Below, piece by piece: positions 31 to 334 of a stretch of 334 nucleotides of DNA; the stretch's first letter is position 1, and each line of letters opens with the position of its first letter. The notes beneath the pieces are model-generated. The model saw nothing but the letters and a program-made list of their open reading frames with translations, ran no database searches and had not been told where the DNA came from. The translations under genes were made by a program, and so were the position numbers. Source of the stretch: Escherichia coli (GTDB lineage: Bacteria; Pseudomonadota; Gammaproteobacteria; Enterobacterales; Enterobacteriaceae); the NCBI RefSeq assembly GCF_003334765.1, contig NZ_QOWT01000137.1; one strand, 5' to 3'.

Positions 31-334
31 TTTCCGCTTCGCTGCAACAACGTAAAACTCGCACCCGCCGCAGCATGCTGTTTGTGCCAGGTGCCAATGC
101 CGCGATGGTCAGCAACTCATTCATCTACCCGGCTGATGCCCTGATGTTTGACCTCGAAGACTCCGTGGCATTGCGTGAAAAAGACACAGCCCGCCGCATG
201 GTTTACCACGCGCTGCAACATCCGCTGTATCGCGATATTGAAACCATTGTGCGTGTAAACGCGCTGGATTCCGAATGGGGTGTTAACGACCTGGAAGCCG
301 TCGTTCGCGGTGGTGCGGACGTTGTGCGTCTGCC
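27..334 (+). CDS. citE: Citrate lyase beta subunit (citryl-ACP oxaloacetate-lyase / citryl-CoA lyase, HpcH/HpaI aldolase-citrate lyase family), 5' part only; continues past the window end
   Basis: ATG at 27-29 preceded by a strong SD. The frame is open through base 334, giving 102 codons plus a partial codon. The translation matches the N-terminus of E. coli CitE as I recall it, including the family-typical RRSMLFVPG and FDLED motifs. Other + frames contain stops (TAA 53, TGA 134, TGA 142, TGA 176, TAA 256, TAA 284). Confidence 0.92.

Follow-up and report, generated by a model that had tools for sequence, protein, structure and literature searches.

The 334-base stretch of Escherichia coli DNA analysed here, referred to below as the window, is almost certainly the citD/citE junction of the citrate fermentation operon citCDEFXGT, with the citE active-site residues intact. 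The gene is the well-known, textbook E. coli citrate lyase beta subunit, and the content of the window is already known and ordinary, without novelty. Over 334/334 bases the window is 100% identical to the annotated citD/citE of many E. coli chromosomes, and of 5426 complete E. coli genomes all but four (5422) contain a match to it. None of the results speaks against this assignment. We establish here the identity and reading frame of citE, the positions and conservation of its residues, its fold and the purifying selection on it.

In NZ_CP032204.1 the gene order is dcuC, dpiA, dpiB (divergent), then citC-citD-citE-citF-citX-citG-citT, followed by rna. The dpiBA-citCDEFXGT arrangement of K-12 has been described before (PMC2735749). 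The junction itself is laid out as follows.

1-30, + strand: citD, 3′ end, with the last nine codons, PALPWEDCQ, and the TGA stop at 28-30 (frame 1); the gene encodes the acyl carrier protein (gamma subunit) of citrate lyase; the RefSeq citD end is base 30
14-20, + strand: Shine-Dalgarno-like GGGAGGA for citE, read from the sequence; it lies within the citD coding sequence, with the ATG 6 nt further on
27-30, + strand: ATGA overlap, citE ATG (27-29) over citD TGA (28-30); locus coordinates are 5734-6030 for citD and 6027-6935 for citE
27-334, + strand: citE codons 1-102 of 302 and two further bases, encoding beta1 to beta4 of the TIM barrel in the beta subunit of citrate (pro-3S)-lyase; 100% identity to annotated citE, with matches to PF03328 and TIGR01588

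The citE translation begins with the ATG at base 27, and 102 of its codons lie within the window. Frame 3 of the + strand contains no stop in its 110 codons and is open throughout, in keeping with the statement of an earlier reading of the raw sequence (the first-pass annotation) that no frameshift or premature stop occurs in the window; each of the other five frames has 1-6 stops. Antisense and alternative-frame ORFs were considered as candidates; all are mechanical ORFs of 20-36 aa, and the selection seen on the citE frame led us to set them aside.

On the citD side, full CitD scores 100.3 bits against TIGR01608, for which the cut-off is 63.5. The GGGAGGA at 14-20 is calculated to form a duplex of -10.2 kcal/mol with the 16S anti-Shine-Dalgarno ACCUCCUUA, and it presumably acts as the ribosome-binding site of citE. 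From its position inside citD, together with the ATGA overlap, we infer that citD (gamma) and citE (beta) are probably translationally coupled. In TOE17, similarity to the window ends at base 11 (about base 400 of L007, equal to window base 10/11), and the DNA upstream is unrelated and lies beside a "hypothetical protein", WP_000528246.1. As read from the sequence, this rearrangement would remove citD and keep citE with its Shine-Dalgarno.

The number of matching places (5,463 in 5,422 records) suggests that about 41 genomes carry a second copy of the citD/citE junction, an example being H9 (NZ_CP023353.1, strain 746). Plasmid-borne copies were also considered and rejected. Eight matches are labelled "plasmid", including three of 4.8-4.9 Mb, which is the size of a chromosome, and three of 0.73-1.3 Mb, and all were typed as non-mobilizable. 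They are read as mislabelled or misassembled pieces of chromosome, with no sign of mobility.

The two coding sequences that meet in the window seem to be joined outright in some relatives. Of 122 diverse full-length CitE relatives, about 29 (including P0008, P0022, P0027 and P0056) have an N-terminal extension of more than 80 residues. Among four N-extended relatives that were checked, two attain the curated cut-off for CitD, and the other two match CitD models significantly, below the cut-off. These proteins appear to be CitD-CitE fusions, a single chain carrying both ACP and lyase, in agreement with how closely citD and citE adjoin in the window. A different kind of joint is seen in P0003 (396 aa, predicted). 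Its N-terminus, which we take to be the start of E. coli CitC, continues into CitE residues 138-302 (98% identity), as though some assembly had an in-frame deletion running from citC into citE.

Within the citE part of the window, the conserved positions are the following.

69-92, + strand: motif 1, R15-S-M-L-F-V-P-G22, strand beta1 (16-21) and its ends; common to the five best-matching CitE-like PDB chains
135-137, + strand: codon of D37, directly before strand beta2; near-invariant, with Asp at the aligned GarL position
147-161, + strand: motif 2, F41-D42-L43-E44-D45, end of strand beta2 and the next loop; D42-L-E44-D45 is 150-161
180-194, + strand: K52...A55-R56 in helix alpha2 (49-63), near-invariant; K52 is 180-182 and R56 is 192-194
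243-269, + strand: motif 3, T73-I-V-R76-V-N78-A-L-D81, strand beta3 (72-76) and loop; R76 is 252-254, and N78, at 258-260, is invariant
288-290, + strand: codon of D88 in helix alpha3 (85-94), near-invariant

The D37, K52...A55-R56 and D88 entries were absent from the first-pass annotation. The three segments that it did name are placed correctly: R15 to G22 at bases 69-92 (R15 is 69-71 and G22 is 90-92), F41-D-L-E-D45 at 147-161, and Arg76 at 252-254 within TIVRVNALD, itself bases 243-269, all confirmed codon by codon. The label that it gave to the first of these, R15-R-S-M-L-F-V-P-G22, needs correction, since it spells out nine letters where there are eight residues. The stretch 69-92 reads RSMLFVPG (R15-G22); the extra Arg is R14 (66-68), and RRSMLFVPG is R14-G22, bases 66-92.

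Conservation was measured among relatives, of which 14,039 were found at E ≤ 0.001 among 1.84 billion representative proteins. The best 150 of the 14,039 formed the conservation set; 131 of them cover residues 15-100, with a median identity to the query of 41% over residues 15-102. Across these 131 relatives N78 is conserved in 100%, D37 and R76 in 99.2%, D42, L43, E44 and D88 in 98.5%, D45 and R56 in 97.7%, K52 in 96.9% and A55 in 93.9%. In the first motif the values are 92% for P21, 89% for R15 and 80% for G22. By this measure the residues named in the first-pass annotation are genuine hallmarks. In conservation, D37, K52, R56, N78 and D88 (97-100%) match the residues so named; neither of the two structural papers (PMC3832036, PMC6689899) gives these five a role. 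D37 is also invariant in the alignment used for structure prediction (A1, 83 sequences), where E139 and D166 do not vary either and D280 is conserved to 90% or more.

Membership in the family was assessed with profile models. For the 102-residue fragment, Pfam PF03328 (HpcH/HpaI aldolase/citrate lyase) gives E 3.5e-32 and 111.9 bits, residues 15-102 covering model positions 1-90 of 221. This places the motifs well beyond chance, and it gives a positive answer to the profile-HMM search that had been proposed for the HpcH_HpaI family. Against NCBIfam TIGR01588 (citE, equivalog) the fragment scores 139.6 bits (E 1.1e-40). The fact that this is under the cut-off of 443.4 was considered as counter-evidence to citE membership and rejected, because the window covers just 91 of the 288 profile positions, whereas the complete gene does pass: full-length CitE of 302 residues, from a genome identical to the window, reaches 452.1 bits against the curated cut-off of 443.4. 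The same protein scores 172.7 against the RipC model (cut-off 375) and 57.4 against the malyl-CoA lyase model (cut-off 500). These values bear on the idea that the gene encodes a stand-alone CitE-like acyl-CoA lyase or thioesterase of the malyl-CoA, citramalyl-CoA or RipC type instead of a citrate lyase beta subunit. Such an assignment would be in line with the nearest solved structures, which are malyl-CoA lyases, RipC and CLYBL, and with a match of the fragment to the RipC model as well (E 1.2e-14). However, the full protein is above the citE equivalog cut-off and far under the other two, and the PDB matches are all acyl-CoA lyases because no closer relative has been solved. The location of the gene points the same way. 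A citrate lyase beta subunit is encoded in a citCDEF(X)G operon beside citD and citF (PMC3832036), and here citE sits between citD (ACP) and citF (transferase) in citCDEFXGT, overlapping the citD stop. We therefore regard a stand-alone enzyme as very improbable and retain the reading as citrate lyase beta subunit.

For a gene so identified, it has also to be asked whether it is a decaying or silent remnant, in which case intact motifs in this third of citE would be uninformative on function. E. coli does not grow on citrate aerobically, just 102 of the 302 codons are visible in the window, and rare lesions do occur at the locus, namely the loss of citD in TOE17 upstream of window base 11 and the four genomes that have no match. 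The cit operon serves anaerobic citrate fermentation with a co-substrate. The pattern of polymorphism speaks against a remnant. The alleles of K-12, JJ1886, O157:H7 ATCC 43888, KK19-02, 2013C-4225 and TOE17 (n=6) were compared with the window, and of the 13 distinct polymorphic sites among these six other alleles 12 are synonymous and one is non-synonymous. The corresponding pN/pS is ~0.03 (75.7 synonymous and 230.3 non-synonymous sites), and the binomial probability of at most one non-synonymous change among 13 under neutrality is ~5e-7. The six sites at which K-12 and the window differ are all synonymous, and the allele of the window is a minority synonymous allele, with 241 of 5422 genomes at least 99% identical to it and the others at 95-99%. 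At full length one protein, WP_000622357.1, is identical in K-12, JJ1886, AR_0013, KK19-02, 2013C-4225 and TOE17, that is, across distant E. coli lineages, despite a DNA divergence of ~2%. The window covers one third of citE; the remainder is intact as read from genomes matching the window exactly, in which citE is full-length with all catalytic residues. The retention of the locus in nearly all complete genomes is likewise contrary to decay. Judged by these comparisons citE is under strong purifying selection, the first-pass view of a functional gene rather than a pseudogene is supported by the 12 to 1 ratio of sites, and a remnant seems hardly credible.

PDB searches gave no solved beta subunit of an operon-encoded citrate lyase, the best relative having ~31% identity, and no structure of CitE engaging the CitD-bound prosthetic group was found. 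The best PDB matches are malyl-CoA lyases (5UGR, 4L9Y), D. radiodurans 1SGJ, Y. pestis RipC 3QLL, human CLYBL 5VXC and M. tuberculosis CitE/Rv2498c. Those solved "citrate lyase beta" entries that are characterised in PMC3832036 and PMC6689899 (malyl-CoA lyases and Rv2498c) are acyl-CoA lyases. In a sequence alignment CitE and the R. sphaeroides malyl-CoA lyase 4L9Y are ungapped over residues 11-92. CitE D42, E44, D45 and R76 correspond to positions 63, 65, 66 and 97 of the 4L9Y chain, which are Asp42, Glu44, Asp45 and Arg76 of the native enzyme (MCLR); the chain has a 21-residue tag for which an offset was applied, and the identical numbering with E. coli CitE is a coincidence. The mapping, which rests on sequence alignment, secondary structure and TM-score, thus puts the residues that the first-pass annotation wished to see on a CitE-like structure onto active-site residues of malyl-CoA lyase. 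CitE E139, D166 and D280 align to MCLR Glu141, Asp168 and Asp299 and are all three encoded downstream of the window.

In MCLR the direct ligands of Mg2+ are Glu141, Asp168, two substrate oxygens and two waters (Zarzycki and Kerfeld, PMC3832036). Both Mg-bound waters are hydrogen-bonded by Glu44 and Asp45, a pair that CitE-like enzymes and malate synthases share without exception, and Asp42 hydrogen-bonds Arg76 and is important for orienting it (PMC3832036). Arg76 itself binds substrate, is the proposed stabiliser of the enolate/oxyanion and possibly the base, and is conserved across the whole CitE-like superfamily and malate synthases, while Asp299, from the lid of the neighbouring subunit, is the proposed proton-transfer residue (PMC3832036). 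M. tuberculosis Rv2498c with citramalyl-CoA bound is reported to have the same arrangement of Mg, Glu, Asp and Arg (Glu112, Asp138, Arg64). The suggestion that D-x-E-D and a conserved Arg help to form the site for substrate and divalent cation therefore stands, with the refinement that D-x-E-D would be second-shell and not a metal ligand. The roles assigned to residues of CitE are carried over by homology from malyl-CoA lyase structures, that is, from acyl-CoA lyases that use free CoA thioesters, to an enzyme with an ACP-bound prosthetic group.

The fold is in agreement with this assignment. An AlphaFold2 model of full-length CitE (pLDDT 96.9, pTM 0.92) has eight strands, at residues 16-21, 38-42, 72-76, 99-102, 133-138, 157-162, 199-202 and 228-231, and a lid made of helix 248-266, hairpin 272-274/277-279 and helix 281-296. 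In Foldseek searches it matches 4L9Y with a TM of 0.83-0.87, and all top matches are CitE-like enzymes. D42 and R76 end strands beta2 and beta3, and E44, D45 and N78 are in the loops right after, so that in the model these five are on the catalytic (C-terminal) face of the TIM barrel. R15 precedes beta1 at the N-terminal (bottom) end, on the face opposite the catalytic one. Based on this position our guess is that R15 may have a structural role; a published role for R15 or for the first motif was sought in PMC3832036 and PMC6689899 and not found.

In the citrate lyase reaction, CitF moves citrate onto the CoA-like prosthetic group of CitD, giving citryl-ACP, and CitE cleaves citryl-ACP to oxaloacetate and acetyl-ACP (PMC3832036). 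CitE is a Mg2+-dependent (beta/alpha)8-barrel lyase, the beta subunit of ATP-independent citrate lyase. By analogy with the structures above, beta1 to beta4 of the window would supply half of its active site. The hydroxyl and a carboxylate of the citryl group would chelate Mg2+, which in turn would be held directly by E139 and D166 and, via two waters completing its octahedral shell, by E44 and D45. R76, positioned by a hydrogen bond from D42, is expected to bind the substrate hydroxyl/carbonyl, polarise the hydroxyl and stabilise the enolate/oxyanion. D280, on the lid of the neighbouring subunit, could then protonate the acetyl enolate.

The features that characterise the CitE-like superfamily are present here: Asp-x-Glu-Asp at the end of beta2 (D42-L-E44-D45), a conserved Arg at the end of beta3 (R76), the direct Mg2+ ligands Glu on beta5 (E139) and Asp on beta6 (D166) with the catalytic lid Asp (D280), all read beyond the window from the complete citE of a genome that matches it exactly, and, in the AlphaFold2 model, a (beta/alpha)8 barrel with a helix/beta-hairpin/helix lid. 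To E. coli CitE itself (WP_000622357.1; TIGR01588) the likeness extends to all 102 residues, to the place in the operon and to the ATGA at which citE overlaps citD, and there is no difference in protein. The R. sphaeroides L-malyl-CoA/beta-methylmalyl-CoA lyase (4L9Y/4L9Z), of the CitE-like superfamily, shares the TIM barrel, the C-terminal lid and the positions of the active-site residues at ~29% identity. It differs in using free CoA thioester substrates, where CitE uses an ACP-bound prosthetic group, in a ~30-residue insertion after beta6 that CitE is without, and in standing outside any three-subunit complex, unlike CitE. In malate synthases the Asp, the Glu-Asp pair, the Arg, the Glu/Asp ligands of Mg and the Asp of the lid are conserved in position with the CitE-like superfamily (PMC3832036). 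Malate synthases are much larger than CitE, have extra domains and also hydrolyse the thioester.

A more distant comparison is with E. coli GarL, the 2-dehydro-3-deoxyglucarate aldolase of the HpcH/HpaI class II type, which shares PF03328 with CitE. The CitE alignment matched GarL by hhalign with a probability of 82% (E 1e-5), from CitE residue 30 onward. CitE D42, E44, R76, E139 and D166 are aligned with GarL D47, E49, R75, E153 and D179; GarL FDWLVLDGEHAPN is the aligned counterpart of a 13-residue CitE stretch, and CitE IVRVN aligns with GarL VVRVP. In place of CitE D45, however, GarL has His50, the Asp-x-Glu-His of the class II aldolase branch (GarL/HpaI type), and RSxLFVPG has no aligned counterpart. 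Since the alignment starts at CitE residue 30, the first motif does not seem to be common to the GarL branch. GarL is also without the C-terminal lid bearing the catalytic Asp, and its substrates are free 2-keto acids, not thioesters. As far as these alignments indicate, CitE shares PF03328 with the GarL/HpaI branch and is not a member of that branch. D-x-E-D and RSxLFVPG would be signatures of the CitE-like branch and not of all PF03328. The "CitE/HpcH" signature of the first-pass annotation is thus apt for the CitE-like branch and too wide as one family label, GarL having D47-G-E49-H50 and leaving the first motif unaligned. D-x-E-D is also a signature of malate synthases (PMC3832036).

The sole non-synonymous difference among the six alleles falls inside D-x-E-D. 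It is D45E (GAC>GAG) at base 161, in O157:H7 ATCC 43888. A 33-base probe was used in which each 28-mer seed spans the SNP, and it placed the Glu45 allele in 92 of 5426 complete genomes, the 40 listed being O157:H7 or O157-type and including EDL933. The Asp45 allele, which is that of the window, is present in 5327 genomes, including another O157:H7 strain. Glu was found at position 45 in none of the 131 diverse relatives, and the change costs 2.5 bits against the citE profile. It is possible, though on balance doubtful, that D45E weakens or alters citrate lyase in this O157:H7 subset, a pathogen lineage.

Taken as a whole, a first-pass reading of raw sequence recognised the N-terminal third of a textbook enzyme gene correctly. 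Its account of the active-site content of the window can be sharpened: a second-shell acidic triad and the catalytic Arg would lie inside, and the metal ligands outside. The one remaining point that may have biological meaning is D45E in the O157:H7 subset, through which the part played by the second-shell Asp in citrate lyase might be tested cheaply.
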